The position numbers and the translations under genes are program-made. A DNA stretch of 64,000 bases from Candidatus Bathyarchaeia archaeon (lineage in GTDB: Archaea > Thermoproteota > Bathyarchaeia > 40CM-2-53-6), in assembly GCA_035656295.1 (NCBI GenBank), contig DASRSU010000008.1, positions 983,420-1,047,419 of the forward strand. Direction: 5' to 3'. Positions within the stretch are counted from its first letter, which is position 1, and the number at the start of each line of letters is the position of its first letter. The notes beneath the pieces are model-generated. The model searched no databases. It was not told where the DNA came from and saw only the letters and a list, made by a program, of their open reading frames with translations. Below, piece after piece: positions 35,500 through 51,664 of this stretch.

Positions 35500-36561
35500 C
35501 TACCTTAGGAGGGGCCGAATGTAATTCCAGGCCAAGTATAGTATCGTTAAGGAGCCCGTGGTCATAATGGCTCCCCAAACCCATTTACTCCGATGTGATT
35601 TGGTCTGAATAGTTAGTTTTTCTTCGACTGCTGATTTCTTGCTAGGCTCATTTAGCTCGATAGCGATTTCTTCGGAAGTTTCACTAGCTCCCACGTTTCG
35701 CAACAGCCATTTTCTAGAGACTGCGGGACGTGGAACACGGAAAACTCCCGAGCCTGTCTTTGCGACATATGCAGTCCATGCAAGTTCTTTCCTGTCTCGT
35801 AAAGCGTCAACTTCATGCTGACGCATAGCGTAATAGACGACTGGGCCAAGCATTCGCTCGACCTTACTAGCATCAAAGGTGCCGGGCGTTCCTGTGCTTC
35901 TGACAAGCAGCAGATCTGCATCAGCCCGTAAATCTATGTCGCCTCCATAGAAACGGTGGAGACCGGCGACCATGATCACAAGCCCTTGGCGCATTCCATG
36001 CTTGAAAAGTTCGCCTCTGATATCGTACCACTTGTCCAGCCAGTAGTCGATCTTCCTCATCTTTTCCAATTGTCCACTGGAATCTTTTACCCCGACCGTA
36101 CCGGAAAGTTTCTTCAGTGCCTTTGTCATGTCATCTGCAAATAGCAGTACTGCCTTTGGAGGTTTTCGGAATCGCTTGAACAGTTTGTCGATGTTCTGAA
36201 ACAATGCTGGAAGGTCTCGCGTAGAGCGCAATGCCTTCACATTCGCTTGACCGTATCTACGGGCTAGTGCTTGAGCAAGCGATTCAGCTAGTGTGGTTTT
36301 TCCGGTATTAGGTTTCCCGAAGATTATGATGTTCAAGTGGTGAATCGCATTATCCTTACCGACCGACTCCGGAAGCGGATCCGGAATAAGTCCATCCAGG
36401 ATAGTGTCCAAGTCAAGCTTCCAGTAGGTAACCTTCGCCAGTAACTCCTCGCTCGGGATACCTGACTTGGCCAGGGCAGAATTCACTGTAGTGAGATCAG
36501 TAGGTGCGCGCACAATACTGGTTGGCGATGGTTTGATCTCAGTGTCTTTCGATTCTGCCAT
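35500..36561 (-). CDS. P-loop NTPase with C-terminal transmembrane anchor
   Basis: Walker A FGKPNTGKTT, Walker B VLLFADD, C-terminal hydrophobic helix (WVWGAIMTTGSLTILYLAW). Lies just outside attL of the integrated element. Confidence 0.55.
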   Translation of the reverse strand: MAESKDTEIKPSPTSIVRAPTDLTTVNSALAKSGIPSEELLAKVTYWKLDLDTILDGLIPDPLPESVGKDNAIHHLNIIIFGKPNTGKTTLAESLAQALARRYGQANVKALRSTRDLPALFQNIDKLFKRFRKPPKAVLLFADDMTKALKKLSGTVGVKDSSGQLEKMRKIDYWLDKWYDIRGELFKHGMRQGLVIMVAGLHRFYGGDIDLRADADLLLVRSTGTPGTFDASKVERMLGPVVYYAMRQHEVDALRDRKELAWTAYVAKTGSGVFRVPRPAVSRKWLLRNVGASETSEEIAIELNEPSKKSAVEEKLTIQTKSHRSKWVWGAIMTTGSLTILYLAWNYIRPLLR

Positions 36562-36970: not shown

Positions 36971-36990
36971 TGGTGGGCCCGCCCGGATTC
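36971..36990. repeat. attL: 20-bp partial copy of the tRNA 3' end
   Basis: Exact match to 49770-49789. Confidence 0.75.
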
Positions 36991-37036
36991 ACCGTATACG
37001 TATTGCGAATCTTTTTGGACCATGAAAACAGGGTTG

Positions 37037-37213
37037 TCAGGGTTTCTTTTTGCGTCCGTTCAATGGTAAGAGTAGGATCCCGCCGTCGGTAGTTTCCATG
37101 TGCAGCTTCTGACCTTCGGCTATCTTCAACGCTCTTGTGATTGCTGTTGGAATGACTACGCGCAGGCTGTTGCCTATCCTTGTAACGGTTACTTCGTCTT
37201 CTATGGTGACCAT
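37037..37213 (-). CDS. AbrB/MazE (SpoVT-AbrB swapped-hairpin) family small DNA-binding protein, 58 aa
   Basis: Unlisted ORF MVTIEDEVTVTRIGNSLRVVIPTAITRALKIAEGQKLHMETTDGGILLLP... is a classic AbrB/MazE-fold sequence. First gene inside attL. Confidence 0.5.
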   Translation of the reverse strand: MVTIEDEVTVTRIGNSLRVVIPTAITRALKIAEGQKLHMETTDGGILLLPLNGRKKKP

Positions 37214-37279
37214 GTTCCTTTTTGGATAGCCCTTCGGATATACTTATAACTGTGAGGCTATCCGATTGGCTATCTGATT

Positions 37280-37885
37280 GTGGATGACACCGAGCTCAGA
37301 AGAATGCTGGGGTTGCAACATGAATGTGCCGCGCGGCAAATCAGACTATTGCGAGTCCTGCCAGGTCTCGATCAAGCTGATCCAGCTGATGCAGGAACAT
37401 GGCGTCACAGTACTCTGGACGTTGCCGGAGATGTTCGACCGATGATTCCGGCCAGTTGTCTTTACTGCCACCAGACCAACGTCATAGAAGGCCTCCCATA
37501 CTCCTGCAGCAAGTGTGGCCGCGAAAGCTTCATCCTCGACTCTAATCAGCTTCCGTCGATACGGATAGATCGGCACGCCCTCCAGAGCAAGAGTAGGAAG
37601 AGCAGCTTCGGTAACTTTCCACCAAACCATCAGCCAGTCGAGAAAACCATCCTGGACGAGGGACTGGTTATGATCAAGTGCAGCTGTGGAGGCATTTGGA
37701 CTTCAACGCTCAAGAAATTGGCGAACGTGGTCGGGTTCTCAGAGGTTCAGCCTGATCCAAAATCGGGGCTTCTCAAGTGTAGACTGGACGATTTGGAACA
37801 GCAGATGGCCACAATTCAGCTGGTCATCAGGAGTGACGGGAGAATCCGTGATGGTGTCTCCTCGAGCGGTAGGACTGGACACTAA
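37280..37885 (+). CDS. hypothetical Cys-rich (zinc-finger-like) protein
   Basis: CLYCHQ...CSKCG and CSCGG motifs. Overlapping antisense ORF 37346..37630 judged less likely. Confidence 0.3.
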   Translation: MDDTELRRMLGLQHECAARQIRLLRVLPGLDQADPADAGTWRHSTLDVAGDVRPMIPASCLYCHQTNVIEGLPYSCSKCGRESFILDSNQLPSIRIDRHALQSKSRKSSFGNFPPNHQPVEKTILDEGLVMIKCSCGGIWTSTLKKLANVVGFSEVQPDPKSGLLKCRLDDLEQQMATIQLVIRSDGRIRDGVSSSGRTGH

Positions 37886-38732
37886 ACCCGAGCAGGAAGC
37901 CAACGATCGGCAACACGAAATCTTTCAATTCGACAGGCAGTGGCAGGGACGGGCCGAGTGAATGAGTCTGAAGAGACAATCTTACCGAGTGGCCCGCTCC
38001 TCCTGACGCCTGATCGATAGTCCATGACTGCCAGTTGATGCCGAAGTAATTGGTCGGAGCATAAGCGTTGTTCGGAGCTGGGAAAGTGTCGGAATCCATT
38101 GATTGTCCATTAGGGTAGCCAACAGCGATGATCAGGGTCTTGGCTTGGATCATGATGCTCTGAGAAACTCCTGGCAAAAACTGCGCCTCGGGAATTGCGA
38201 AAACATTGTATGTTGTAATTGTGATGGTTGACTTCCAGAAGTTGCGCGACATTATGTCCGAGAAGGAGAAGAAAACAGTCAGGTCGCCCTGACTATAGTC
38301 TGTCACCGTGAGATACCAGAAACCGGGCGTGGAAGACTTCCCGCTTCGGGTAAGGTTGCCTGGATGGTTGAAGCCGAACAGTGTAGCGTCGAATGGGAAC
38401 GTGATGTCGAACGTGACAGGCTGCCAAGCAGCTGAGTAGGACACTCTCAAGGATCCTATGTTCCAGACCGTGTTCAACTCGAGGATGATCTTGGACGTGT
38501 TGAAATTAAGGCCGGTGAAACCTGATGCCGGCGGCCGGATCCCAACATCTATTGGTTTTCCAGAGTTTGTTCCGAACCAAGGCACTGGAGGCCAGACTGA
38601 AGCTAGGATCAGAAGCATCGCGAGTATTGCGGGAGACCACTTGAGAGCTCTTCTGACTTGTCTGTGTCTTCCGAACCAGCTGTGTAGCGCGACTCGTTGT
38701 GCTCGGATCCACTTTCTCCAGTTGCCTGGCAT
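37827..38732 (-). CDS. hypothetical signal-anchored protein with a beta-rich extracellular domain
   Basis: N-terminal TM (AILAMLLILASVWPP) followed by a Ser/Thr/Asn-rich region. Confidence 0.35.
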   Translation of the reverse strand: MPGNWRKWIRAQRVALHSWFGRHRQVRRALKWSPAILAMLLILASVWPPVPWFGTNSGKPIDVGIRPPASGFTGLNFNTSKIILELNTVWNIGSLRVSYSAAWQPVTFDITFPFDATLFGFNHPGNLTRSGKSSTPGFWYLTVTDYSQGDLTVFFSFSDIMSRNFWKSTITITTYNVFAIPEAQFLPGVSQSIMIQAKTLIIAVGYPNGQSMDSDTFPAPNNAYAPTNYFGINWQSWTIDQASGGAGHSVRLSLQTHSLGPSLPLPVELKDFVLPIVGFLLGFSVQSYRSRRHHHGFSRHS

Positions 38733-38815
38733 ACTTTTTCGACTCGGCCTCTAGGGATTTCTTAGTGTAAAACTGTAGGGGGGCCCGGAGTAGGGGGGTA
38801 GGGTGGTCAAAAACA

Positions 38816-39157
38816 TCAGCCATACGGATTTTCAAGATGGCCGTGTTCCTGAACCCATTTCTTCGCCATTTCCTTCTTCACGGTAAGAAATGGCAGGAGT
38901 TTTTGGAGGATCTCCCGAGTTCTGTAGCCGCTGTCGATTTCGAACCGATAATACCGACCACGAGGATGCTTCTCTCCGTTGATCATGCCTTGTCCCAGGA
39001 ATTTGCGGACTCGTTCAAGCAGTACTCTGTCGTAGCTGCAGATTCTGAACCGGTGTTTCCATCCTCGCCGGCGTCTATGAACATCTCGGACATTCCCTGA
39101 CTTGTCGAATTGCGTTGCTAACTGGGGCCATGTGAGAGGACTGACTGGTTTCGTCAT
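38816..39157 (-). CDS. possible degenerate single-motif LAGLIDADG-like protein
   Basis: LATQFDKSGNV resembles LAGxxDxDG, and downstream pattern (RYYRFEI...LQKLLPFLTVKK) is typical of the LAGLIDADG fold. Weak. Confidence 0.3.
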   Translation of the reverse strand: MTKPVSPLTWPQLATQFDKSGNVRDVHRRRRGWKHRFRICSYDRVLLERVRKFLGQGMINGEKHPRGRYYRFEIDSGYRTREILQKLLPFLTVKKEMAKKWVQEHGHLENPYG

Positions 39158-39720
39158 CGCATCACAGCCTCGATGTGACGTCTGACTTCTCGTCCGACCT
39201 CGTCAGGAGTCATTCCTCGAGCGTCAACTTCAACGTTGACAGTCTGCGTCGAGGATCCTATCGGACTCATGTTCCATACTCGAACGTCCATCCCACCCTG
39301 TCCAGGAGTAGTGGACGGGCCCACGGGACCCGGATCATTTTCATGCTGTCTTATTGCATCGGAGAGGCCCCAGGCCGCCAGTGCTGTTGCGGCGCCTGCG
39401 AGCAGAATCCAGCCGGGAGGGCCTGCCGCGAGATCAGCAAGGTTCGTAGCAATGTTGATCATTGACCGGATGACCGCTGATGATCTCAGCATGGGAGCGA
39501 GCCGGGCCAGCCCGTTGATCAGGGTTCCGACAGCTGCAACGAATCCGAACGCTTTGTCGAGACCTTCCGCCTGGGTTTTCGATAATAGTCCGAAGTGTTC
39601 TGCAATGTTCGTGATGAATAGAGCGGATCCTCCCATGGCAGCGATTCCACCACCAATCGCCCGAACCTTGCTCTGGATACTGTCGCCAATACTTGAGATG
39701 TGATCGATTCCACGGAACAC
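39154..39720 (-). CDS. Ala/Gly-rich multi-TM protein, paralog A (candidate virion or membrane protein)
   Basis: Three hydrophobic A/G-rich helices plus a ~60-aa C-terminal domain. Paralog of 39769..40350. Confidence 0.4.
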   Translation of the reverse strand: MFRGIDHISSIGDSIQSKVRAIGGGIAAMGGSALFITNIAEHFGLLSKTQAEGLDKAFGFVAAVGTLINGLARLAPMLRSSAVIRSMINIATNLADLAAGPPGWILLAGAATALAAWGLSDAIRQHENDPGPVGPSTTPGQGGMDVRVWNMSPIGSSTQTVNVEVDARGMTPDEVGREVRRHIEAVMR

Positions 39721-39768
39721 TAACCGGAGATCATGAACCGCTCCAATAGCACCAAGCGACGTAGCAGC

Positions 39769-40350
39769 TCAGCCCCTCCGGAGACGTTCACGGTCGATCA
39801 GGATCTCGAGATGCCGTTTCACCGCAGCAGCCGTCTGCTCTGGACTACTGGATCCTGTAATCGTGATATTTGCGGAGACATTGTTTCCGCCACCGCTGCT
39901 GATCGGCATCAAACTAGTCGTGATGGGCCCAGTGGCCGCAGTAGTTCCAGGAGCATATCCGCCCGCAGCATTGCTTGGATTCTGTACAGTCTTGTTGGCT
40001 CCAATGTTCTGTGAAAGGGCGTATGCTGTCAATGCTGTGACTGCCCCCGCCAGAATTGCCCAGCCGAGGGGCCCTGCCAGGGCGTTTGCTACTGCCGTAG
40101 CAGCATTCATGATGCTCTGAGCACTAGCAGCAGCCATGATCATTGGTGCTAGTCTTGCAAGCACGTTGATCATCATGCCCGCAGCTGCGATAAACGCGAA
40201 GGTGCGGTCGAGAGATTGTGCTGTTTTCTTGTCCAGGTAACCGAACTGTTCTGCCAAGTTCGTGACGAAGAGGCCTGTTCCACCGAGAACTGCCATCGCT
40301 CCTCCCAGGGCCCGTACTTTCGACTGGATAGTGTCAGTTACGTGGCTCAC
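39769..40350 (-). CDS. Ala/Gly-rich multi-TM protein, paralog B
   Basis: Same architecture and conserved N-terminal block (IQSKVRA(I/L)GG...LF(I/V)TN(I/L)AE(H/Q)FG). Confidence 0.4.
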   Translation of the reverse strand: MSHVTDTIQSKVRALGGAMAVLGGTGLFVTNLAEQFGYLDKKTAQSLDRTFAFIAAAGMMINVLARLAPMIMAAASAQSIMNAATAVANALAGPLGWAILAGAVTALTAYALSQNIGANKTVQNPSNAAGGYAPGTTAATGPITTSLMPISSGGGNNVSANITITGSSSPEQTAAAVKRHLEILIDRERLRRG

Positions 40351-40416
40351 ATGGTCAATGCCACGGAAGATGATCCTGAGGTCGTGAACTGCTCCAATAG
40401 CACCAAGCGACAGTTT

Positions 40417-40710
40417 CTAGGCCCTCCTCGCTGCTTCAAGACTTGCAGGAGTAAAATCGTTCAGCTGCATGCTCAACATGAGCAGTCGCAGATACAGCTG
40501 CCTCGGTAGATCTCCGAGGACGTCCTTCGTCAACTGTCTTCCATTGGGCGTCGTTACGCCCAGGGCAAGTAGGTCTTCGACATACTGGATCCCCGGCGCT
40601 GCATTCAGCATGCGATGGAGGAGATCCTTTCTTTCTCTATCACCGAGACGGTGGACACTGTAGACGCCAGCAAATTCTGGTCCATATTCGTCTTCTCGAA
40701 TAGTCAGCAT
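40417..40710 (-). CDS. hypothetical protein
   Basis: ORF only. Confidence 0.3.
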   Translation of the reverse strand: MLTIREDEYGPEFAGVYSVHRLGDRERKDLLHRMLNAAPGIQYVEDLLALGVTTPNGRQLTKDVLGDLPRQLYLRLLMLSMQLNDFTPASLEAARRA

Positions 40711-40762
40711 GGCGACGCCCTTGTTCGCGTCACCAGGCTGCTCTGGAAGTGTTGACGTCTCG

Positions 40763-41386
40763 CTACTTTCCTTGTCTGCTGACTCGCATGATGCCAGGTC
40801 GTGGCGGACTGGGCGCGGTGGTCGCTGCTGGTGTTGTTGCCGGAATCATCGTTGCTGGGCCGACTCCTCCGTCTGCAGTAGGAGTAGGCGCGGGTTTCAT
40901 GCTCATCTGGTTCGACATTTGTTTGCTGAGCGAATAGCTGTCGACGCTGAGATCGTAGTCGCCCGGGGATCCCGGTGTCGGAATCGTCGCGTAGAACTGC
41001 GAGATCTTGTTGAGAGCCGCAGGCACGTCGGGCGAAGGATCGCATGTCGACGGATTGCCCGGGGATCCTGTGGCCAGCATCGAACTGTCTGCTCGGACTA
41101 ACCGGTCTTGACCGTTCTGCGACCAGGTCTCTGGACTGTCCGGGGTCGACTGTTTAGGATTGACTGGTGCGGCGGTTGCTTGCGGCTGGACCCATGTAAC
41201 GTTCTTGCGAGCTGTGGGTCCCGGTAGCCCGGGTCTTGTGTCGCCTTGGCCCCAAACCATCGGCTGACCAGTTTGAGGATCAATCGCTGTTCGTAAAATA
41301 TCGGTTCTCGTGCTGTCTGCTGCGCTGGTCCCGTCAGGAATCGGGCCCTCGTTCGTCTTTCCCAATATTTTGTTTAGGATTTTCAT
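40763..41386 (-). CDS. hypothetical Pro/Thr-rich low-complexity protein
   Basis: ORF; P/T/S-rich linker-like composition. Confidence 0.35.
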   Translation of the reverse strand: MKILNKILGKTNEGPIPDGTSAADSTRTDILRTAIDPQTGQPMVWGQGDTRPGLPGPTARKNVTWVQPQATAAPVNPKQSTPDSPETWSQNGQDRLVRADSSMLATGSPGNPSTCDPSPDVPAALNKISQFYATIPTPGSPGDYDLSVDSYSLSKQMSNQMSMKPAPTPTADGGVGPATMIPATTPAATTAPSPPRPGIMRVSRQGK

Positions 41387-41409
41387 TTTCTATTTTCACC
41401 TCGCCTGTC

Positions 41410-41802
41410 CTAGTAACGGATCATCAAGGACACTGACAACGTCCAAAGGACACTGACAACGTCCAACAGAGCAGGCAGCTCAAGGATCTCAACCACCTCC
41501 TTCACTTCGACAGGTTCCAGCCTCTCCTCCTCCGGCTCCTTCCGGTTGAGTCTCGGCAGAAGCAAAGCTGCTGTCTCAACCAGATCCGACCCGTCGACGT
41601 CGCGCAAGAGATCCGTGAATTCCAGTGCTTCAATAGTCTCTGCGACTCCAGAGTCAAGAATGAAGGGGCCCTGGTCCGGCAGCTGGACCCTGAACAAGTC
41701 GTCTCCGTCTCTGAGATTGAGAATGTTCTCGCTTCCACGTTTGAACTGGAGCAGTTGAGAATAGCTTCTCAGGGTCAGGGCTCGGCGTTTGAATCGTGGC
41801 AC
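41410..41802 (-). CDS. hypothetical protein (3' end contains a 20-bp tandem duplication)
   Basis: ORF; the C-terminal LWTLSVS repetition reflects the tandem repeat. Confidence 0.3.
   Translation of the reverse strand: MPRFKRRALTLRSYSQLLQFKRGSENILNLRDGDDLFRVQLPDQGPFILDSGVAETIEALEFTDLLRDVDGSDLVETAALLLPRLNRKEPEEERLEPVEVKEVVEILELPALLDVVSVLWTLSVSLMIRY
41428..41467. repeat. perfect 20-bp tandem duplication AGGACACTGACAACGTCCAA x2
   Basis: Direct reading. Core CTGACAACGTCC also occurs at 36766-36777. Confidence 0.85.
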
Positions 41803-42248
41803 TACTCTTCCTCCTCTTGTTCCTCATCCTCACTGTTACTTGCCACAGGATGACCGTCTTCCCCATCTTCCGGCGTGTCAGCCTGTTCCTTCCTGCGCTT
41901 TCGTTCTTTCTTCTTGCGAGGCTTTTCTTCGAGCGTATTGTGCAGGATCTCGCCGAAGATCCTTTTCGGTTCGCTCAGCGAGAGACTAGGGATCAAGCTG
42001 CCTTGTGGCATGTAGGCAAAGTCGTAATTGACAAACCGGGGCCCGACACTTGTCGTCTGGCCAGTTACACTGTCCTTGACCGAATTAGCTTCATAGATCT
42101 GTTCTCCTCGAGTGACGATCCCACGTGCAGCATCCACAAGAGCATGACCACTCATCCTCTTCATGTCCTGGCGGATCTGGTCCTGATATTCCTGGTGGCG
42201 CCTTGCAGCTCGCTGCTGGGTCTCGAACGGGTTTTCTGTCGTTGTCAT
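41802..42248 (-). CDS. hypothetical protein with poly-acidic C-terminal tail
   Basis: ORF; basic KKKERKRRK stretch followed by DEEQEEEE. Confidence 0.35.
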   Translation of the reverse strand: MTTTENPFETQQRAARRHQEYQDQIRQDMKRMSGHALVDAARGIVTRGEQIYEANSVKDSVTGQTTSVGPRFVNYDFAYMPQGSLIPSLSLSEPKRIFGEILHNTLEEKPRKKKERKRRKEQADTPEDGEDGHPVASNSEDEEQEEEE

Positions 42249-42252
42249 TGTT

Positions 42253-42495
42253 TCACCTCGCGAGTCCTGGAATCATCTTGTTCTGTATGAGTGATCGGAG
42301 CTCGAGCTGACGGGTCTGCAGGCCCTTCTTCAACAGCAGCGACGTCACGTCTGTGAAAGTAGGAGGCTTCAACAGATCTCTAGCGTTTGGAAGACTCGAG
42401 AGAATGCTTCTCTCGACATCAACCTGTCTTCGCAGCTCGTTCATCAATGCCGGCTCGACACCGACTGTGAATTTTACTTTGGACATTTTTCTCAC
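42253..42495 (-). CDS. ribbon-helix-helix-like small DNA-binding protein (paralog 1)
   Basis: N-terminal beta-strand then helix pattern (KFTVGVEPALMNELRR...LLLKKGL), RHH-like. Confidence 0.4.
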   Translation of the reverse strand: MRKMSKVKFTVGVEPALMNELRRQVDVERSILSSLPNARDLLKPPTFTDVTSLLLKKGLQTRQLELRSLIQNKMIPGLAR

Positions 42496-42698
42496 TTGAT
42501 CGGGTTCGCCTGTAGCTCCCTGAGTTCTTGCCGACGGACTGTTAGTCCACGTTGCAATAGGCCCCGGACAACCTCTGACGTCGTCGGCTCACCAAGGAGT
42601 CCATGAGTGGCCGCGAGATTCTTCTCAATCTCCAGCTGTTCACGGATCCGGTCTACCAGTGCCACGGGGGCCCGTATCCCCAGATGTATCGTGCTCAA
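42492..42698 (-). CDS. ribbon-helix-helix-like small DNA-binding protein (paralog 2)
   Basis: LGIRAPVALVDRIREQLE...VVRGLLQRGL is similar to paralog 1. Confidence 0.4.
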   Translation of the reverse strand: MSTIHLGIRAPVALVDRIREQLEIEKNLAATHGLLGEPTTSEVVRGLLQRGLTVRRQELRELQANPIK

Positions 42699-43126
42699 TT
42701 CCTAGTTCTCCATGAAAATTCTGTTTGCGGCAGCCTCCAGGTGGATGGTTGTTCGAAAAAAGCGGAAACAATTTTCGAGGTGAAAAATCCTGGAAGCTGC
42801 TCTCGCAAGAATGATCGTCAACTGTCATAGGCCTCCCGGGCCCTTGAGGAGTCTAGTGTAGCTGCGCGGGTGGCGGAGGACCTCCCCGGAATCAACGTCG
42901 AGAAGCACAGATTCGACTCGTGAGACAATTTCGCCCAGCTGCTGATCACGGAACGCGCTTTCATAGACCATCTTCTTCTCGTCCTGGACTGCCTGCCATA
43001 ATCTGTGACGGCGTGTCCAGGCGGATTCTTTCGCGTGCTTATGCGCCAACAGTAGGACAATGGAATCTAGAGGAATACCGAGTAATAATCAGAGCCATAC
43101 AAAATCTACAATATCTATTTCGACGG

Positions 43127-43375
43127 CTACGGGCCCGGCTTCTCCTTCTTCTCCTCGAGATAGGCACGGACTCCTTTTCGAAGAATCATCTCGACCACGT
43201 TGCTGATCGGCACTTCTGGCCAGTCACGTGTCTGAGCTAGGTCGCGTTCTTGGCTGATGATGGTTTGAATCTGCTTGTAGAGGTCAGATTCGATCGTTGC
43301 TTCGATCCGTATTTTTGTGCCGAACCATGTCTTGACGTCTTCCTTGTCAAGGTCGACACTCGGTAGTTCCCCCAT
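43127..43375 (-). CDS. RHH-like small protein (paralog 3)
   Basis: KIRIEATIESDLYKQIQTI...VVEMILRKGV has similar periodicity. Confidence 0.35.
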   Translation of the reverse strand: MGELPSVDLDKEDVKTWFGTKIRIEATIESDLYKQIQTIISQERDLAQTRDWPEVPISNVVEMILRKGVRAYLEEKKEKPGP

Positions 43376-43407
43376 GGTCGACTTGGATTGTTCCTACGCT
43401 TCCCGTC

Positions 43408-43698
43408 CTAAAAGGAATGAGTGTTGAGGCTGGAGTTCACAGTTGTTCCTATGAGACTCTCACACTTCCGCTGCAGTTCCAAGATCATCTTGTGCTGGCC
43501 GAAAATGATCGCCATTAGTAATGGGATCTCTTTCACCGTGGAACCCATCTCGCTAGCAGAGAAAGAGTACAGTTCACACTGTCGCATCATATCCTGGAAG
43601 ACTTCGAGATCCTGCTTGCGCAGGCGCCAGCTGAAGCGATCGAGAAGCGCGAGCGCGGGATCGTCGATTTTTCGCCAGTAAGGAACTCTGAGTCCCAT
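43408..43698 (-). CDS. hypothetical protein, paralog of 33546..33908
   Basis: Shared conserved core VKEIPLLMAIIFGQHKMILEL. Confidence 0.4.
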   Translation of the reverse strand: MGLRVPYWRKIDDPALALLDRFSWRLRKQDLEVFQDMMRQCELYSFSASEMGSTVKEIPLLMAIIFGQHKMILELQRKCESLIGTTVNSSLNTHSF

Positions 43699-43839
43699 GA
43701 CGCAAGCTCCATCGGCCTACCTGATATTCAGGAGCTGAGAGCGAAAGTATGCCCAAGGACTACTCACCTGATCCAGTTATGCTCAAAAACAGCTTGATAG
43801 CACGCGTCCAATAGTGTTGTAGACTATGAAGATGGTAGT

Positions 43840-44211
43840 TTGACGGGCTTGACGAGTCAGCGGCCAAGGTCGCGGGCTCGCCTCTTTGTCTTACTGGTGC
43901 TTGGAATTATTCTTCTCCTCGCCGGCATCTCGTACCCGGTGCTTCTTTTCATCGGGGCAACCTCTTGCATAGACCCCCTTACTTGCGTGCCACTAGAGGG
44001 ACTTAGTCTGTTAGGTGGAGGTTTCCTTCTGTACGCATTCAACGCGATCAGAAAGAGGGATCAAGCGAAGATACGGGCGATGAAAATCGGTTTCGCGGTC
44101 ATTGCCCCTGTAGGCTTTATTCTGGGCGTGTTCACCATAGACCTCTTCACTCCCCCTATCCCGTCTCAAGACCGCATCATCGATGCAGGACTGGGCGACC
44201 ATCATGATTAA
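43840..44211 (+). CDS. membrane protein, apparent 5' part of a gene interrupted by a 70-bp insertion
   Basis: Two TM helices. Ends within the first copy of the 35-bp repeat. Confidence 0.4.
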   Translation: MTGLTSQRPRSRARLFVLLVLGIILLLAGISYPVLLFIGATSCIDPLTCVPLEGLSLLGGGFLLYAFNAIRKRDQAKIRAMKIGFAVIAPVGFILGVFTIDLFTPPIPSQDRIIDAGLGDHHD

Positions 44212-44256
44212 GGCTTGATAACCCCCTATCCCGTCTCAAGACCGCATCATCGATGC
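44152..44256. repeat. two perfect 35-bp direct repeats (CCCCCTATCCCGTCTCAAGACCGCATCATCGATGC) separated by a 35-bp spacer
   Basis: Copies at 44152-44186 and 44222-44256. Confidence 0.85.
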
Positions 44257-44287
44257 CAGTAAGGGAGTTCTAGAATTCGACAGCTTC

Positions 44288-44671
44288 TTGACGGTAGGAT
44301 GGACGATAGCGTTCAGCCTGGTCGGTCGTTGGTTGAGAGAGGTTCGAACTATGAGACGAAAACTCCTTGAGATTAGCAGCAACTACGAGGTTCAAGGGCT
44401 CCTGAATGACATCAGACATCTCAGATCGGATGCATTCGTTGAAGTCTCCGTCAGCATCTTTCTCGTGCTCATCTCCGCATTCTTTGCTGTCGCAGGTATA
44501 CTGGTAGGGGGCCGAGTTTCTCTGATGCTTGCGCTGATCTTTCTCTCTCTCTCTCTTGGAACTGTCGCAATGGTGTTCGGCTGGTACGACGTCTATTCTA
44601 GGACTGAAAACGTGATGCACTTTGTGGACACGGCGCCGAAACCTCCGGCTGCATCTCCAAAGGTTTCTTGA
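44288..44671 (+). CDS. membrane protein, apparent 3' part of the interrupted gene
   Basis: The frame is open from 44222 (the second repeat) and joins in frame with 43840..44186 if 44187-44256 is removed. Confidence 0.4.
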   Translation: MTVGWTIAFSLVGRWLREVRTMRRKLLEISSNYEVQGLLNDIRHLRSDAFVEVSVSIFLVLISAFFAVAGILVGGRVSLMLALIFLSLSLGTVAMVFGWYDVYSRTENVMHFVDTAPKPPAASPKVS

Positions 44672-44814
44672 TCGTAGCCTGGAAAAGCAGCTCTTGTTCC
44701 TTACAAAACGCGGTGACTGGATATTTTGTCTAGGCCGAGATGCGTGAAAGTGCTGAATCGAGCAAGGATCCTGTACTAGACCAAGATCCCTGAACAGTTG
44801 TTTCAGCAGAAGAG

Positions 44815-45453
44815 TCAGTGATGGGTGACGACTTTGTCCGGAACGATGTAAATGTAACCCTTCTGAGGCGAACCTTGCCTGAGGATTTCGCGATCTCCAG
44901 ATAGCGATTTCAAGTGCTTCTGAACAGTTGCAAGCTCCATATCGAGGGCTTGGGCGACATCATTGCTAGAGCCCGAAATTTTGAGGTTGCGTAGATATCC
45001 CAGAATCTTCAATCGATTTTCCTTCCACATTCTAGTTTTCGCTGATACTTTTCCGGGTTTACCCTTCAGGGTTCTTTGCATTGTTGCATAGGAAACACCG
45101 TACTTTTGAGCGAGAGCTTCCATCCGGATCTCCGAAGATACGCGAATTTTCAAGATCTCATTGATCTGCTCTTGGGACAGAAGCTTTCGAGCTCCAACTC
45201 GTCCAGGTTTTGCGGCAACTGCTGCATCAATCAGCTTCGGGTCGACGAGTGGCGGGTGAGATCCCTTCTCCCAAGAAACTTGACCGTTCTCATTCGTTGT
45301 CTTATTAGATCCCTTGTAGAAGGGGAGGTTGAATATCCGAAACATCAAACCCTCGGTAAGACCTTCTGCTTTAGCTGCGCCTCGAACGGTTTGGTGTGTC
45401 TCAGCGATTAGCTTGAGAGACCCTTCGACTTTACGAGCTTTCTCACTGTTCAC
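44815..45453 (-). CDS. DNA-binding protein with two HTH/winged-helix domains
   Basis: HTH-like segments (GVSYATMQRTLKG; SSNDVAQALDMELATVQKHLKSL). Confidence 0.45.
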   Translation of the reverse strand: MNSEKARKVEGSLKLIAETHQTVRGAAKAEGLTEGLMFRIFNLPFYKGSNKTTNENGQVSWEKGSHPPLVDPKLIDAAVAAKPGRVGARKLLSQEQINEILKIRVSSEIRMEALAQKYGVSYATMQRTLKGKPGKVSAKTRMWKENRLKILGYLRNLKISGSSNDVAQALDMELATVQKHLKSLSGDREILRQGSPQKGYIYIVPDKVVTHH

Positions 45454-45486
45454 TCTTATGAGATGATCAGGCCCAAGCTCGTATCC

Positions 45487-45978
45487 TCATGGCAAGAGTC
45501 TTGAGCTGTAATCCCAGTAACCTTTTCTGAGCCTCTCTATCTGTACCTTGTGCCCAGCCGCCGCCATTTCCTTCGGAGGATGCTTTTGCTGGAATTTGAC
45601 GTGGTAATATCCGGAACGCTCTAGTTGGTGTTGCGCCCAGTGAATTGCCTTTGAGACTTCATCGAATCCGCTCAACGATCTTGCCACAGACTCCCTAGCT
45701 TTGCCGATTTTTTGCGCTACTTGGGAAGGGGTCACTCTGGTTGCTTTCTCTCCCAAAGTCCGGGAACGCAGAATCGTTTCAGCAGCCCACACGCCAGCAG
45801 ATCTCACGTCTTGGGCGCTGAACGTCCAGGTGTTACTGTCGGATTTCACTACCTTCCAGAATTCGAGGCAGGCTACGCAGGTCTCTTGCTCTGAGCGCTT
45901 CGGACCTAATTTCTGCAGCAAGATGGCTCGGCGGGTAACAGCCCCTGTTACGATCCGTTGCTTCTTGTTGCGTAACAA
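45487..45978 (-). CDS. HTH-domain protein
   Basis: VAQKIGKARESVARSLSG HTH-like segment. Confidence 0.35.
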   Translation of the reverse strand: MLRNKKQRIVTGAVTRRAILLQKLGPKRSEQETCVACLEFWKVVKSDSNTWTFSAQDVRSAGVWAAETILRSRTLGEKATRVTPSQVAQKIGKARESVARSLSGFDEVSKAIHWAQHQLERSGYYHVKFQQKHPPKEMAAAGHKVQIERLRKGYWDYSSRLLP

Positions 45979-46020
45979 CTCTTGTTACGTAACATGGCCT
46001 GTTACAATGATTTTTAACAT

Positions 46021-47787
46021 TTGTTCGGTGGTTTGAGATCAGCTTCGAAAAAGGCCCTCCCGAACCCTCCTCTGGTCAATCAGAGGAGTTTGACCCGGTC
46101 TTTCTGGCTGGTTCAGGTCGTTCGGGAGCTCCTCCGAAACAGCAGAAAGGAGAAGAAAAAAGTCGTCATCAAAGACGAACGACCTGAACGTCGAACAACA
46201 TGTGGAGCCGCGATGAGCGAGACACAGGAGAAACCGAAAGAGTTCCCGTCAGTTGGCGGGTCGCACTACCAGGAAGGAATAATCTATGAGCAAATACTGG
46301 ACTCTTCCGGCTACGCCAAATTTGCAAGAAACGATAGTGGCGAACTCTCCGAAACGATCAAACCCTTTGATGCCACGTCTGACAGTGCTGCGAAGAAAAC
46401 TTTCCGAGTACTAGATCCCAACCATCTTCCCTGGCTCGCTGCTTCGGATCCCGAGTGCTTCAAGTCCGTAGAAGACGAATACCTGTTTTCCGCTATTGCG
46501 GGCTTTCTCGAGCTGTACATTGACTTCACCGACAAAAGACTGTACAAGGTCATAGCCGCCTGGATAATGGCCACGTGGCTCCTGGAGACATGGCGCGTCG
46601 CTGCGCCTCTCTACGTACTAGGACCCGTGAATTCAGGCAAGACAACCGTTCTAGAATGTCTTGAGCAGGTAAGCTATCGTGGGATCCGCGGCGGATCCAT
46701 GTCGACGTCGACGATGTTTCGCCTGGATGATCAGTACCATCCCACTCTGCTGCTTGACGAGAGCCAGATCTACAATCAGGATACAATGGGAGAGGCGCAG
46801 GCTCTGATCAACGAAAGATATCGCAAGGGTGGAAAGGTATGGCGGATTATCGGCGAGGGGAAGGACATGATCCCTAACGCCTTCAAAGTCTTCGGATTTT
46901 CAGCGTTCGCATCCAATCATCCACCCTGGGAAGCGCTCAGCTCTCGAGCCGTACTAGTAAGGATGGAGAAGAACCGGGAAAAAGTTCGTCAGACCCTCAC
47001 ACCGGTTTTCGAACTGCAAGGCAAGGAGCTCAGAACTTGGCTCCTCCAGTATCGTTTCAAACACCTCCAGCTGTGGACGCCTCAATATGAAGAGGAGGAT
47101 CCCGTCGACAGGCTACTGGAAAAACTAGGTGACTATCGAACTCGCGAGATCGGATACGCCCTCCTCAAAGTGGCACCAGAGAATGAGCGGCAGACAGTCT
47201 TGGGCTATCTCGAATCCCTTGAGAAAACTCACCAGGCACTGGAAAACACAGCCTATCTTGCAGACTACGTTGTCGCACTGAACAGATGTGAACCGGAAAA
47301 CAGCAAGGTTTCAGCCCAGGCAGTACGATACCAACTAGCGATTCTCAGAGGTGCTTTTGATGACAAAGGCAAGATCATCTCGAAGGAAATTCCAAAGCCT
47401 CAGTCGGTGATGAAAGCCCTTCGGACTCTCGGCTTTCAAGATACCCGAATGAGTAGCAACGGTGCCACAGGTGTCACTTGGGACAAGGAACTGCTCGATC
47501 GGCTTACACTGAGATACAATGTCAAAGATGCTTCAAAAGCTTCAGGAACTTCAGGAACAAACGTGAACGGTCCTGAAGCACCTGAAGAGCCTGACGCAGA
47601 TCGGGGCCAGCGACCCCTCGAGACAGCCGCCATTTCCAGTGATACCACTCTAGGCGGAACATACCCCTTGTCGAAAGAGAGAGGAAAATGTGCTAGTTGT
47701 CAGCGGGAAGGGCCTCTCCAGGTAAATGGTGATGGAGCATTCCTAGTCTGCAGTGACTGCTACACCCTGTCGGAGATCAAACCTTGA
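46021..47787 (+). CDS. P-loop NTPase, probable replication protein (SF3-helicase/D5-like) with C-terminal zinc ribbon
   Basis: Walker A GPVNSGKTT, Walker B LLLDESQ, C-terminal CASC...CSDC. Likely start at MSETQEK (46214). Confidence 0.5.
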   Translation: MFGGLRSASKKALPNPPLVNQRSLTRSFWLVQVVRELLRNSRKEKKKVVIKDERPERRTTCGAAMSETQEKPKEFPSVGGSHYQEGIIYEQILDSSGYAKFARNDSGELSETIKPFDATSDSAAKKTFRVLDPNHLPWLAASDPECFKSVEDEYLFSAIAGFLELYIDFTDKRLYKVIAAWIMATWLLETWRVAAPLYVLGPVNSGKTTVLECLEQVSYRGIRGGSMSTSTMFRLDDQYHPTLLLDESQIYNQDTMGEAQALINERYRKGGKVWRIIGEGKDMIPNAFKVFGFSAFASNHPPWEALSSRAVLVRMEKNREKVRQTLTPVFELQGKELRTWLLQYRFKHLQLWTPQYEEEDPVDRLLEKLGDYRTREIGYALLKVAPENERQTVLGYLESLEKTHQALENTAYLADYVVALNRCEPENSKVSAQAVRYQLAILRGAFDDKGKIISKEIPKPQSVMKALRTLGFQDTRMSSNGATGVTWDKELLDRLTLRYNVKDASKASGTSGTNVNGPEAPEEPDADRGQRPLETAAISSDTTLGGTYPLSKERGKCASCQREGPLQVNGDGAFLVCSDCYTLSEIKP

Positions 47788-48221
47788 CAGAAGAGAGCAT
47801 AGTGACCGAGACATCGGTGATTGCAGCGTCAGAGGATCCAGCAGATGACAGAGGCTTCTGTCCTTCGTGCGGCGAAAAGCTCACTGAGTCATTCTACGAA
47901 CACACGACAGTTTTTCATTCACAGAACGGAGAAATCATCATTCTGAATAATCCTCTCTACGAGCTGGACTCGATACCTCTTGGCGCTGGCGTCTTCGTCC
48001 GATACTTGGACCATGTATTCTTCAAAAATGTAGAATCCGAGGCAGAGCAGCTTCCTCGAGAAATGAACGCAGCCGGCCTCCTGGACTACCAGGACGAAAG
48101 AGCTGTTCGTCTCAAATGGGAGCATTACGATCAGCCCAACGAATCCGGGACCTCCAGAACGAGGTCTACGGGTATCACCATCTTGAAGAGTACAATTCTT
48201 GAGGTCAGGAAGCTCTCGTGA
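47784..48221 (+). CDS. hypothetical protein with CPSCG zinc-ribbon motif
   Basis: ORF overlapping the integrase start by ~20 nt (operon-like). Confidence 0.3.
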   Translation: MTEESIVTETSVIAASEDPADDRGFCPSCGEKLTESFYEHTTVFHSQNGEIIILNNPLYELDSIPLGAGVFVRYLDHVFFKNVESEAEQLPREMNAAGLLDYQDERAVRLKWEHYDQPNESGTSRTRSTGITILKSTILEVRKLS

Positions 48222-49743
48222 AAATACCGGCTATCCGACCGGCTATCTTATTAGTCAGCATGATTCGACTGACGTCTTGAGGAAAAAACGAGTGCAGTCA
48301 AAAACTACACGTCAAACCACTGAACTAGTATTCCAGCAAAGACAGCTCCACGTTGAAGACATAGAATTCGTCAAGGCTCTCGGAAGAATAGATGGCACAA
48401 ACCTAGTGATCGAACGCAGCACGAAACAATATCGACTGAAGCAACCGATCACCGTCCCGCTCGACCAGGTGCTTGCACTTGGCCACAAGGGACTTGTCCG
48501 CTACATACTCGAAGGACTCACGTCAAGCAGGCCTTCACTGATTCCACTGATTGTTCAGAACAAGAGCCTGATAGAACTTGCGCGACATTTTCTGAGACGA
48601 TACAGCGGCAGCATCATGAGCCTCTACGCGTACACCAACACTGTCGCAGCCTACGCCAAGAGTTGGGATGCTACTCCGGACCAACTCATCACCGACGCGC
48701 GCAAGAACAAGAAGAGAATCAGTCACCATGAGAAAGCAATAGAAGAATACATTGCCCAACTCCAGGACGCGGGCAGGACACCTGGGCGAATACACGGTGT
48801 CGCGAAACAACTGCGCACCTGGTACCGATGCAACGGTGTCGAACTGAAACTGTCAACAGTACCAAGGCCCAAAGTCACCTACAAAGATCGGTCCCCAACG
48901 CAGCAAGAGCTAGCATTACTTCTTGACGCCGCGGACCTACGTGGAAAATGTGTGGTCAGTCTGCCGGCACTTGGAGGATTTCGAGAGACAACACTCAGCC
49001 TCCTAAAGTACCGACATGTCAGAGAAGACCTGGAGAAGGGACTTGACACGATCCACGTCCATGTTGAACGCGACATTGTGAAGGGGGAGTACGACTCCTA
49101 TGACACGTTCATTCGCGGCGAGGCCATACAATATTTGAAACAATATCTTGACGCTCGTCGAACAGGACGATTGGATCCCAGGATCAAACCCGAAACCATC
49201 ACTGACAATTCGCCGCTAATCAGGGACGCATTGTGGGACAAGACCCGCGGCTCGGATCAACCGAAACCGGTCGGACCCAAGGCAATCTACAAACTCGTCC
49301 ACGAACTCTTCGTCAAAACCGGACTTGTGAAGCCAGGCGACAAACACTACACGCTTCGATTTCACACATTCCGGAAATTCTTCAAGACCAACCTTGTAGC
49401 TGCAGGAGTTCCAGAAAGCCACGCGGACTATTTCCTGGGACATGTCAGTGATACATACAACCAAGTTCGAGATCTAGGAGTCGATAAGCTCAGAGCTAGC
49501 TATTCGAAAGGACAACTGGGCATTCGCCCACAATCACAACAGAACCTGACTAAGACACTGATCAGCTTGATCCAGGCAGCCGGCAAGGATCCGTCACAAT
49601 ACCTCAACAACAAAGCACTTTCAGAGCCTAACCGGGTAGCGTCAGAAAACCCAGACCAGCGTGACGCTAGAATACTGTTGTCAGAGCTCACGGACTACTT
49701 GATGCAACGCGTGCAACAACAGCGGCAACCCGTTAGTACCTGA
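48199..49743 (+). CDS. int: tyrosine recombinase/integrase
   Basis: C-terminal catalytic motifs HTLRFHTFRKFF (HxxR), ...YFLGHVSDTYN (H...Y). Ends 26 nt from the tRNA 3' end. Gene is intact, so not an SSV-type split integrase. Confidence 0.8.
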   Translation: MRSGSSRENTGYPTGYLISQHDSTDVLRKKRVQSKTTRQTTELVFQQRQLHVEDIEFVKALGRIDGTNLVIERSTKQYRLKQPITVPLDQVLALGHKGLVRYILEGLTSSRPSLIPLIVQNKSLIELARHFLRRYSGSIMSLYAYTNTVAAYAKSWDATPDQLITDARKNKKRISHHEKAIEEYIAQLQDAGRTPGRIHGVAKQLRTWYRCNGVELKLSTVPRPKVTYKDRSPTQQELALLLDAADLRGKCVVSLPALGGFRETTLSLLKYRHVREDLEKGLDTIHVHVERDIVKGEYDSYDTFIRGEAIQYLKQYLDARRTGRLDPRIKPETITDNSPLIRDALWDKTRGSDQPKPVGPKAIYKLVHELFVKTGLVKPGDKHYTLRFHTFRKFFKTNLVAAGVPESHADYFLGHVSDTYNQVRDLGVDKLRASYSKGQLGIRPQSQQNLTKTLISLIQAAGKDPSQYLNNKALSEPNRVASENPDQRDARILLSELTDYLMQRVQQQRQPVST

Positions 49744-49769
49744 ATACCCCAAGTGTCGCCATACGTATG

Positions 49770-49884
49770 TGGTGGGCCCGCCCGGATTCGAACCGGGGAC
49801 CGTCAGGTCTCTCAGTGTTTGACGTATGAGCCTGCCGCTCTCTCAGTCTCTTGACCGGGAGAAACCTGGCTGAGCTACGGGCCC
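49770..49884 (-). tRNA. tRNA gene (attachment target), 115 nt, intron-containing
   Basis: Acceptor GGGCCCG/CGGGCCC + A + CCA, D-arm GCTC-AGCCAGG..., T-arm CCCGG-TTCGAAT-CCGGG. Extra sequence in the D-loop and anticodon region implies an intron. Confidence 0.7.
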
Positions 49885-51152: not shown

Positions 51153-51287
51153 ATGGAAGTCAAGCTAGATATAAACAGGAACGGTCGCCGCATTGAGACT
51201 TGATCAAATCCGAAGGCATCGATTCGATTTCCAATCTTTAATAGACTGATTTTATCCTCGTTCGAATCGCCGCCGGCTAAGATAAAG

Positions 51288-51432: not shown

Positions 51433-51664
51433 CCTCTCGGCGGCGCCAATCATCCCACTTTCAAATTAGAAACTCCACATCAGAGGGCCATCGTTCTTCG
51501 AACGAAGCAGTTGTAATCAACAATGGTCCTGATCGCTTTCGGTGATGGACTGTGCTTGGAGCTACTAGCTACGAATAGCGAGTAACAGTACGACTAATAA
51601 CCCGGCCAGCCAAAACTCTAGAGAGTAGACGTTCCGCAATTAGAGCTAGTGTCCGGCTAAGCAT

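Follow-up and report, generated by a model that had tools for sequence, protein, structure and literature searches.

A probable plasmid-like integrated element with a cassette related to viral tail genes at a tRNA-Met gene of a soil Bathyarchaeia archaeon

We analyzed a 64,000-nucleotide stretch of DNA from a Candidatus Bathyarchaeia archaeon (GenBank assembly GCA_035656295.1, contig DASRSU010000008.1, positions 983,420 to 1,047,419 of the forward strand). We call the whole stretch the window, and all coordinates refer to it unless another locus is named; loci used for comparison are designated by L numbers. The window contains a 12.8-kb block, at 36971 to 49789, which is enclosed by two copies of a 20-bp repeat, one of them within a tRNA gene. 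An earlier inspection of the letters, here called the sequence-only reading, had proposed that this block is a mobile element integrated at the tRNA gene and equipped with an integrase, a replicative P-loop NTPase, and small regulators. Our analysis supports that proposal. With a probability of about 0.65, we read the block as a lambda-type integrative plasmid-like element of the cryptic integrated element (CIE) kind, with a backbone of a replication protein (Rep) and an integrase (Int) and with a cassette captured from a viral tail module. We concluded that the element belongs to a small undescribed family.

The repeat defines the ends of the element. We found that TGGTGGGCCCGCCCGGATTC (20 bp) occurs exactly twice in the window, at 36971 to 36990 (the attL core) and at 49770 to 49789 (the attR core), given here on the plus strand. 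No copies were expected by chance in 100 dinucleotide-preserving shuffles, and no third copy was found in the window, even with up to 5 mismatches. The attR core is the 3' end of the tRNA gene and comprises the end of the T loop, the 3' strand of the T stem, the 3' strand of the acceptor stem, and ACCA. The exact count and the tRNA analysis together confirmed the perfect direct repeat of a tRNA 3' end that had first drawn attention to the block. Because the core duplicates the last 20 nt of the tRNA, including the CCA, the tRNA is intact after insertion. The GC content hardly differs between the element (0.522) and the window (0.513).

The target is a tRNA-Met(CAU) gene on the minus strand (49770 to 49884). 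ARAGORN and Rfam detected no tRNA in the unspliced window because this gene has two introns. Read from 49884 to 49770, the gene is 115 nt long with its encoded CCA, starts with GGGCCCG, contains a T-arm, and ends with CGGGCCC-A-CCA. Using a systematic scan for bulge-helix-bulge (BHB) motifs, we found a canonical 37/38 intron of 16 nt (49809 to 49824) beside the CAU anticodon; its hBHBh' structure is perfect, with a 4-bp central helix, two 3-nt bulges, and outer helices of 4 and 2 bp. The second intron, of 22 nt in the D loop (49842 to 49863), fits only a relaxed BHB and was placed by hand. When both introns were removed, ARAGORN reported a 77-nt tRNA-Met(CAU) with a regular cloverleaf, and when the canonical intron alone was removed, it reported no tRNA. 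We also compared the orthologous tRNA in a related locus, L006 (JGI Ga0480449_0000903). The exons are 100% identical and the differences are confined to the two predicted introns, which supports the hand-placed D-loop intron. Alternatively, the CAU anticodon could be that of a tRNA-Ile2 after modification. Two other approaches proved too permissive: a single-intron ARAGORN guess of tRNA-Leu(CAA), which we dropped in favor of BHB-guided splicing, and a brute-force scan of two deletions, which we abandoned.

We observed a probable second multi-intron tRNA gene to the right of the element, on the plus strand at approximately 51268 to 51449, with acceptor halves GCCGCCG...CGGCGGC-G-CCA. It was likewise missed by ARAGORN and Rfam. 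At least 14 Bathyarchaeia loci contain it at 77 to 86% nucleotide identity, and the window and four of the loci carry an extra insert of about 21 nt.

Joining the two ends of the element gives a predicted attP in which the core sits between inverted copies of TCGCCATACGTATG, matching at 12 of 14 positions in the window and at 14 of 14 in L006. The right arm, TCGCCATACGTATG (49756 to 49769, plus strand), is the same in the window, L006, and a third locus, L049, and L025 has a related arm. Its inverted partner in the left arm, tATACGTATtGCGA (36995 to 37008, plus strand), is kept between the window and L006. We regard both arms as putative integrase-binding sites, since arms that flank the core in the predicted attP have the layout expected for recombinase-binding sites. 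The attL junction reads ...GTGGTATCA / core / ACCGTATACG..., and the attR junction reads ...CATACGTATG / core / GAACCGGGGA.... The corresponding predicted junctions are ...GTCGCCATACGTATG / TGGTGGGCCCGCCCGGATTC / ACCGTATACGTATTGCGA... for attP and ...CAGTGGTATCA / core / GAACCGGGGACC... for attB.

The integrase gene (48199 to 49743, plus strand) encodes an intact tyrosine recombinase of 514 amino acids (aa) and stops 26 nt before the attR core, as the sequence-only reading had described it. The protein matched PF00589 (27.2 bits, with a cutoff of 27.1) and phrog_1 (1.8e-10). In an alignment with four relatives, we found that the catalytic R, HxxR (HTFR), H, and Y are all kept; the identities are 76% (L049), 75% (L006), 36% (L030), and 41% (L015). 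In type I integrases, the att site lies within the gene, which is split upon integration (PMC8371274). We ruled out this SSV-type, "suicidal" arrangement, as the gene is unsplit and the core lies 26 nt past the stop. We also ruled out the pNOB8-type subfamily (R...YxxR...Y) by the HTFR motif. With an unsplit gene and an external att site, the integrase behaves as a lambda-type (type II) enzyme.

Upstream of int lies the rep gene (46213 to 47787, plus strand), which encodes a primase-associated AAA+/superfamily 3 (SF3)-like replicative NTPase with a C-terminal CxxC...CxxC zinc ribbon. The proposal of a P-loop NTPase with a zinc ribbon was therefore right in kind. Its start needed correction: according to an independent gene call, translation most likely begins at 46213 (524 aa) and not at 46021 (588 aa). 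The more specific label of a D5-like SF3 protein did not hold, because Pfam shows only a faint AAA_18 match and the fold resemblance is that of AAA+/SF3 proteins in general. The AlphaFold (AF2) model of Rep has a mean pLDDT of 72 and a confident core at residues 70 to 440. Its Foldseek matches were MCM, ORC/Cdc6, the helicase region of the phage NrS-1 primase-polymerase, the plasmid protein PriRep1, and AAV Rep40, with TM-scores of at most 0.47. We found about 25 Rep homologs, some of them fused to zf-CHC2 and Prim-Pol; distant ones carry DUF3631. Walker A and Walker B are invariant in 15 relatives, and the identity is 44 to 46% in L006, L030, and L003.

Relatives of Rep in curated replicon collections were found in small plasmids only, namely a 17.6-kb Haladaptatus plasmid, in which the Rep domain is inside a single large open reading frame (ORF), and a 14.3-kb Streptomyces plasmid. 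A search with the Rep alignment found no member of the family in any of the 185,579 GTDB representative genomes scanned and only two matches in IMG/VR, at about 30%. Single-sequence scans of IMG/VR with Rep and with the first of two tape-measure-like paralogs described below gave no match. Searches of deposited phage genomes with a homolog of these paralogs, Rep, and the integrase gave either no match or one marginal match to a Pseudomonas phage. PDB sequence searches with Rep and with the integrase were uninformative.

Between rep and int lies a third backbone gene (47784 to 48221, plus strand), encoding a 145-aa zinc-ribbon protein that is a candidate recombination or replication accessory factor. 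It is kept in L006 (49%), L028, L040, and L049. Upstream of the Rep start, in the intergenic region between rep and divergent genes that include a helix-turn-helix (HTH) regulator, we observed a perfect 14-bp inverted repeat (46111 to 46124, GTTCAGGTCGTTCG, and 46176 to 46189, CGAACGACCTGAAC; the arms are separated by 51 nt), which we regard as a candidate for either an operator or an origin element. The left end of the backbone is formed by a gene for a predicted AbrB/MazE-fold small DNA-binding protein (37037 to 37213, minus strand; PF04014, 6.6e-9), a match that bears out the AbrB-like ORF noted earlier. Homologs of this protein are found at the same left-end position in L006 (46%) and beside an att junction in L049 (47%).

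Related loci were found via Rep homologs, and we count three or four sibling elements among them (L006, L030 with its partial copy L029, and L049). In L006, the core occurs at 399 to 419 and at 14358 to 14378, 13,959 bp apart. The integrase lies beside the orthologous tRNA and is followed by a homolog of the pilin-like gene in the right flank of the window; Rep is 46% identical. In L030 (WNGQ01003632.1), 12,195 bp separate the two cores, located at 1899 and 14094; its Rep is 45% identical, and rep precedes int beside the orthologous tRNA, in the order seen in the window. When we compared the window, L006, and L030 all against all, we found that only the backbone is common to them and that the roughly 8 kb of cargo is unrelated. 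The shared att core, arm repeats, and Int and Rep with unrelated cargo indicate that this is a real family of integrative elements.

The closest sibling by content is L049 (GCA_030157165.1, JASDBC010000753.1). Besides the integrase and the AbrB protein, it shares with the window homologs of a 301-aa protein (56%), an 82-aa protein (63%), and a 74-aa ORF (45%). In L049, the integrase, the right arm, and the core (19 of 20 positions) are fused straight to the AbrB end, without an intervening tRNA. We concluded that this junction is of the attP type, as expected of an episome or a tandem array. In the stretch at 8398 to 8446 of L049, a partial second core (TGGTGGGCCCTGGCGGA, 14 of 17 positions) lies 32 nt after the core and hints at a tandem or remnant att arrangement. 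A further observation concerns the L006 integrase, which has an in-frame stop two codons past the catalytic tyrosine (DTYN*VQSL, approximately 14057 to 14059 of L006), with homology continuing in frame. The gene could be a pseudogene or encode an enzyme shortened at its C terminus, or the stop could be a sequencing error.

These loci also bear on the possibility that the block is not mobile and that the repeat arose by chance or by misassembly at the tRNA. The window does come from a metagenome-assembled genome (MAG), and short-read contigs of SRR12347814 break within the T-arm of the tRNA. However, the repeat is exact, unique, and unexpected by chance, an independent Logan contig crosses attR exactly as in the window, and homologous elements with this core at their ends occur in three independent assemblies of metagenomes. 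The sibling elements effectively refute the artifact explanation, to which we assign next to no probability. The breaks of SRR12347814 Logan contigs near the att site were inconsistent with attP or attB branching and were not used as evidence.

Across the soil Bathyarchaeia, this tRNA-Met gene serves as a hotspot of integration. Its 39-nt 3' exon is invariant in 17 GTDB representative genomes, nearly all of them MAGs of soil Bathyarchaeota/Bathyarchaeia, and genes of the right flank of the window are present at many of the tRNA-bearing loci with 43 to 58% identity. We found that L015 has a different integrase (41%) abutting the orthologous tRNA and that L018, L024, L025, and L026 have second core or near-core copies 1 to 3.5 kb away. 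L025 keeps the arm sequence of the family and has no detectable integrase. Within the 17 tRNA-bearing genomes, a T-rich, native-looking trailer follows the tRNA in L012, L014, L017, L020 to L022, and L027, with left flanks that are nonsyntenic with the window or the siblings. The right flank of L030 is 88 to 91% identical to that of L019/L021, and its left flank is still nonsyntenic. In the window, directly adjoining the element to the left of attL, we observed a gene for a 353-aa AAA ATPase with a C-terminal transmembrane helix (35500 to 36561, minus strand). It shows no synteny with any related genome and may belong to a hypervariable region or to an older element remnant by the tRNA.

These data also identify the host. 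The sequence-only reading had suggested a thaumarchaeal element. In contrast, two proteins of the element are 100% identical to NCBI entries of Candidatus Bathyarchaeia MAGs, and the tRNA exon is nearly confined to Bathyarchaeia. We concluded that the host is a soil Bathyarchaeia archaeon and not a thaumarchaeon.

The cargo includes a cassette of about 1.6 kb on the minus strand that is related to the tail modules of head-tailed viruses. It consists of a 97-aa ORF (40417 to 40710) and two Ala/Gly-rich paralogs, one annotated at 39769 to 40350 and extended by us to a CTG codon at 40413 and the other annotated at 39154 to 39720, with a conserved N-terminal extension to an ACG codon at 39762. The paralogs have about 24 homologs. 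Paralog 1 is 50% identical to the proteins in the tape-measure position of L046, L047, and L048, and paralog 2 is 38 to 50% identical to proteins in that position in tail modules of tailed viruses. L046 and L047 carry one and the same homolog protein, and L046 and L048 are contigs of Bathyarchaeia MAGs. In L046, L047, and L048, the homolog (235 to 239 aa) lies inside a morphogenesis module of a head-tailed virus with the gene order Phage_tube_2 tail tube, HK97-gp10-like protein, ~95-aa ORF, homolog, ~265-aa ORF, and ~730-aa ORF. L046 also has PHROG matches to a head-tail adaptor, a minor tail/tube protein (4.8e-17), and a tail protein. The slot after the tube gene and the ~95-aa ORF is the canonical position of the tape-measure protein.

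Profile searches gave a similar result. Single family members had tape-measure PHROGs as their only matches, and these were weak (E values of about 0.002 to 0.008). An exhaustive profile search recovered 318 relatives, including many long proteins that were matched at their extreme C terminus. Among the long relatives that we sampled, 6 of 10 were bona fide tape-measure proteins by PHROG, with E values down to 1e-78. A PDB search with the profile was uninformative. The 97-aa ORF occupies the position of a tail assembly chaperone, just upstream of the gene in the tape-measure position, and is 33 to 40% identical to the ~95-aa viral ORF (E values of 8e-13 and 3e-10), with the same gene order. 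From these comparisons, we concluded that both Ala/Gly-rich proteins are homologous to the mini tape-measure protein found in tailed archaeal viruses, although shortened relative to it.

The sequence-only reading had taken these paralogs for multitransmembrane proteins that might be virion components. The viral connection holds in the sense that their homologs are tape-measure-like proteins of tailed viruses, but what the element carries is an isolated cassette. Homologs of the tube, gp10-like, and tail proteins of the L046 and L048 modules are absent from the window, and the tail module in the element is thus incomplete, with only the tape-measure-like and chaperone-position homologs. Nucleotide identity to L048 is about 70%, and the viral contigs share no DNA with the window outside the tape-measure gene, including any stretch resembling a pac or cos site. 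We had also considered readings of the hydrophobic paralogs as spindle-virus-like or pleolipovirus-like and dropped them upon finding the tail-module context. No structural PHROG match was found among the 49 cargo ORFs of three siblings. Because these three siblings lack structural genes, the cassette is accessory cargo of one family member, probably captured from a tailed virus, and not a trait of the family.

The cassette has unusual coding features. The 97-aa ORF and both paralogs form one 519-codon frame that is broken only by a TAG (40419 to 40417) and a TGA (39771 to 39769). The paralogs encode the N-terminal extension of the family (SLGAIGAVHDLR...) upstream of their annotated GTG starts, and the initiator codon of the homologs (ATG in L046, TTG in L048) is replaced in the window by the CTG at 40413 and the ACG at 39762, each of which lies 9 to 12 nt downstream of a GGAGG. 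Between the two paralogs, the 22-codon extension shows 8 synonymous and 3 conservative changes, which indicates that it has been translated under purifying selection; the dN/dS for the paralogs overall is 0.24, with dS saturated. The conserved LAGEAGxERVT block of the viral homologs (SGPTLFLAGEAGRERVT) is missing from both copies and from an environmental relative, P0034. Near-cognate initiation, a read-through fusion, and a recent loss of function are all possible explanations of these oddities.

A 113-aa ORF (38816 to 39157, minus strand) lies downstream of paralog 2, with a 4-nt overlap between the two. It matched phrog_5046 (3.4e-7), all 7 of its weak PDB matches were LAGLIDADG enzymes, and its motif, LATQFDKSG, appears by eye to be degenerate, without the second acidic residue. 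This ORF of LAGLIDADG-like homing endonuclease fold may be a domesticated or decayed homing endonuclease within the tail cassette.

Tail-module genes raise the question of a viral origin for the whole element, which had been put forward as a candidate provirus. We found no match to a capsid, portal, terminase, or packaging gene in Pfam and PHROG scans of the ORFs of the element and no conjugation gene (VirB4/VirD4-type ATPases, mating pore) in Pfam scans, in agreement with the sequence-only reading, which had seen no capsid, terminase, or conjugation gene. A Caudoviricetes provirus was rejected because no HK97-fold major capsid protein (MCP), portal, or large terminase was matched and because the tail module is incomplete. 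An integrative conjugative element was rejected because VirB4/VirD4 and mating-pore matches are lacking and the element is too small. Apart from Rep and Int, all ORFs are of 301 aa or less, so neither a large terminase nor a portal could be accommodated, and the element is not an autonomous provirus. The nonviral cargo of the three siblings also speaks against the provirus proposal. The assignment to the CIE class is tentative: an integrase is present and MCP, portal, terminase, VirB4, and VirD4 genes were not matched, but two tail-module families are present.

Decay of a tailed provirus, with loss of the head and packaging genes and of most tail genes, would account for the presence of tail-module genes, for tape-measure-like genes with lost starts and a deleted motif, and for a homing-endonuclease-like ORF inserted in the cassette. 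However, the two att copies match perfectly, and no catalytic residue is missing from the intact integrase. The siblings are of like size (12.2 to 14.0 kb), with an Int and Rep backbone and zero viral genes, the Rep is of the plasmid type, and the viral modules with homologs show no such Rep or Int within the 20 kb examined. We consider decay from a provirus very improbable.

We also weighed the possibility that the element is a satellite of a tailed archaeal virus, that is, a plasmid-derived element whose incomplete tail module exploits or resizes the tails of a helper member of the Caudoviricetes and which spreads in helper particles. Its size and its int-rep-regulator layout are similar to those of bacterial P4/PICI-type satellites. 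Both gene families of the cassette are 33 to 50% identical to tailed-virus module genes in related soil Bathyarchaeia MAGs. In addition, the bin GCA_040961615.1 holds a Rep-family locus (L005) together with the viral module L048, which has a full-length mini tape-measure homolog, so the element family and candidate helper-type viruses co-occur in one genome bin. The selection on the paralogs noted above, both overall and in the extension, and the occurrence of the deletion-variant subfamily elsewhere (P0034) point in the same direction, and the combination of plasmid-type replication with an incomplete virion module agrees with the working criterion for archaeal satellites (10.1101/2025.02.15.638363). 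On the other hand, no small terminase, capsid-size, or portal-interacting gene was matched, no pac- or cos-like DNA is shared with the viral contigs, and no helper virus was identified in the window. Three siblings have no structural gene at all, a tape-measure protein is no known lever of satellite hijacking, and both copies lack canonical starts and the LAGEAGxERVT block. We therefore regard a satellite as unlikely. The boldest form of this idea would make the element the first satellite or tail assembly parasite of a head-tailed archaeal virus, with its own shortened tape-measure variants and chaperone-like protein, made by CTG/ACG initiation or by stop read-through of the 519-codon frame, that hijack, resize, or block tails. 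We think that this form is doubtful.

A different role for the same genes would be antiviral, with tape-measure decoys and a chaperone-like protein that poison the tail assembly of infecting tailed viruses. The paralogs have a dominant-negative look, keeping the most conserved N-terminal region and the hydrophobic core without the C-terminal block; moreover, two diverged copies are under purifying selection, and the cassette lies in the variable cargo region of a mobile genetic element, a kind of region that often carries defense genes. Against this, PADLOC detected no known defense family and returned only P-loop and HTH noise, there is no verified precedent, and the argument is inferential throughout. 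An antiviral cassette is, in our judgment, quite improbable, and we continue to prefer an integrative plasmid-like element with captured tail genes.

The remaining cargo is made up largely of small genes. On the minus strand at 42253 to 43698 lies a cluster of small regulators, comprising two ribbon-helix-helix (RHH)-like paralogs (42253 to 42495 and 42492 to 42698), the 74-aa ORF kept in L049 (42825 to 43049), the 82-aa RHH/TraM-N-like protein (43127 to 43375), and a 96-aa ORF. Three RHH-like paralogs had been proposed here. Two of them are indeed paralogous (E = 9e-11), but the third, the 82-aa protein, has only a weak match to the TraM N domain (RHH). Similarly, two multi-HTH proteins had been proposed. 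On the minus strand at 44815 to 45978, divergent from rep, we found one 212-aa multi-HTH regulator, with matches to HTH_26, HTH_11, and others, whereas its 163-aa neighbor has no HTH match or any other credible match.

Membrane proteins and orphans account for the other genes. The 301-aa protein (37827 to 38732, minus strand) has, by hydropathy, membrane anchors at both termini and a beta-rich ectodomain. Its sole homolog is the 515-aa protein of L049, and its AF2 model (pLDDT of 45) was unusable. The 3' end of its gene is overlapped by a convergent ORF for a 201-aa Cys-rich orphan (37280 to 37885, plus strand), which is of uncertain coding status and has no Pfam or PHROG match. Two small multitransmembrane proteins of 123 and 127 aa, assigned by hydropathy, are encoded at 43840 to 44671 on the plus strand and had only subthreshold matches, to DUF7521 and DUF2417. 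Three orphan ORFs (a 207-aa Pro/Thr-rich ORF and ORFs of 130 and 148 aa; 40763 to 42248, minus strand) have no Pfam or PHROG match. The 207-aa ORF seemed to resemble a viral ORF of 610 aa, but we rejected this as low-complexity similarity. We found no public copy of the left-flank ATPase, the AbrB gene product, or protein P0033 when we looked for exact protein matches. At the 3' end of the transmembrane protein gene at 43840 to 44211 and just past it, we observed a perfect 35-bp direct repeat (44152 to 44186 and 44222 to 44256, 70 bp apart), where Logan contig L001 breaks. Either a recent, short duplication or a site resembling an iteron could account for it.

Several points weigh against reading the block as an active plasmid-like element with a captured cassette. 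About half of its ORFs are orphans, and virion proteins could be among them unrecognized. The Pfam score of the integrase barely reaches the cutoff. Both tape-measure-like genes lack a canonical start at the conserved N terminus as well as the conserved C-terminal block, and the cassette may be nonfunctional or functional in an unfamiliar way. The L049 junction may represent a tandem array instead of an episome. Finally, no clean empty site was found, as the left flank of the tRNA is nonsyntenic in the 17 related genomes and in the siblings.

According to the model that we favor, the integrase would act on the 20-bp attP core and the tRNA-Met 3' end, which are identical, recombining the two so that the tRNA is regenerated, and would also excise the element as a circular form. 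Rep, as a primase-associated AAA+/SF3-like helicase of the small-plasmid kind, would replicate the circle, and the AbrB, RHH, and HTH proteins would govern the switch between the two states. The circle could then reintegrate at attB in the tRNA. For movement between cells, vesicles, passive transfer, and packaging by a helper virus are options; no conjugation genes were found.

Bathyarchaeia are among the most abundant uncultured archaeal lineages, and their mobile elements are almost unknown. The locus defines a family of Int and Rep with an exact att site, a predicted attP and attB, arm repeats, and a tRNA-Met hotspot as the target. The att sequences can be used directly to search metagenomic reads for excision and are perhaps a starting point for genetic tools. 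Multi-intron tRNAs of archaea escape the usual searches for tRNAs and those with Rfam, so that integration sites linked to such tRNAs stay hidden. The captured cassette is a record of genes passing between plasmid-like elements and the tailed viruses of archaea. Should it be functional, the concept of archaeal satellites would no longer be confined to spindle-shaped viruses but would take in head-tailed ones as well. According to a 2025 preprint (10.1101/2025.02.15.638363), pSSVi and pSSVx, both linked to spindle-shaped viruses, had been the only satellites known in archaea, and a 2026 preprint proposed a plasmid-like satellite of an Asgard head-tailed virus.

Among known systems, the element most resembles in its backbone the CIEs of Thaumarchaeota (PMC6563490). 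It is similarly small (12.8 kb, compared with a CIE median of 17 kb), has a similarly short att (20 bp, compared with a median of 17 bp), and shares with CIEs a tyrosine integrase, insertion at the 3' end of tRNA genes, including intron-containing ones, replication genes of the primase/S3H type, RHH and HTH regulators, many orphans, and the lack of a viral or conjugative hallmark set. Unlike those CIEs, it has a Bathyarchaeia host, its Rep family is the one absent from the GTDB genomes scanned, and it carries tail-module genes, which CIEs lack by definition. Its integrase resembles the type II (lambda/pNOB8-paradigm) archaeal enzymes, whose genes stay intact after integration with att outside (PMC8371274), and has the classical R...HxxR...Y motif in contrast to R...YxxR...Y in the pNOB8 type and R...KxxR...Y in the SSV1 type.

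Bacterial P4-like and PICI-type satellites share a size of about 10 to 15 kb, an integrase for tRNA-type att sites, Rep proteins of the primase/helicase type, and small repressors. In contrast to these, the element has an archaeal host and no sid/psu/delta-like, cpm, or terS-like gene by Pfam or PHROG, and only its tape-measure-like and chaperone-position genes are common with viruses. Like pSSVx, pSSVi, and the haloarchaeal SRCEs (10.1101/2025.02.15.638363), it combines plasmid-type replication with an incomplete virion module homologous to genes of co-occurring viruses. However, those elements are parasites of spindle-shaped viruses that encode an MCP, an AAA+ ATPase, or both, whereas this one carries tail-module genes of the head-tailed kind and integrates at a tRNA att site. 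What the element has in common with the Caudoviricetes proviruses found in Bathyarchaeia and other archaea (PMC10848311, PMC11705971) is a mini tape-measure-like protein together with the adjoining upstream gene, as in L046 and L048, but it is about 3 to 5 times smaller and has no MCP, portal, terminase, tube, adaptor, or baseplate gene. We did not find a published description of integrative plasmids of Bathyarchaeia; the literature that we found covers their viruses. We concluded that the kind of element is well described, as a tRNA-integrating CIE or integrative plasmid of Thaumarchaeota and other archaea, and that what is new is the host lineage, the Int and Rep family with its att site, and the isolated tail-module cassette.

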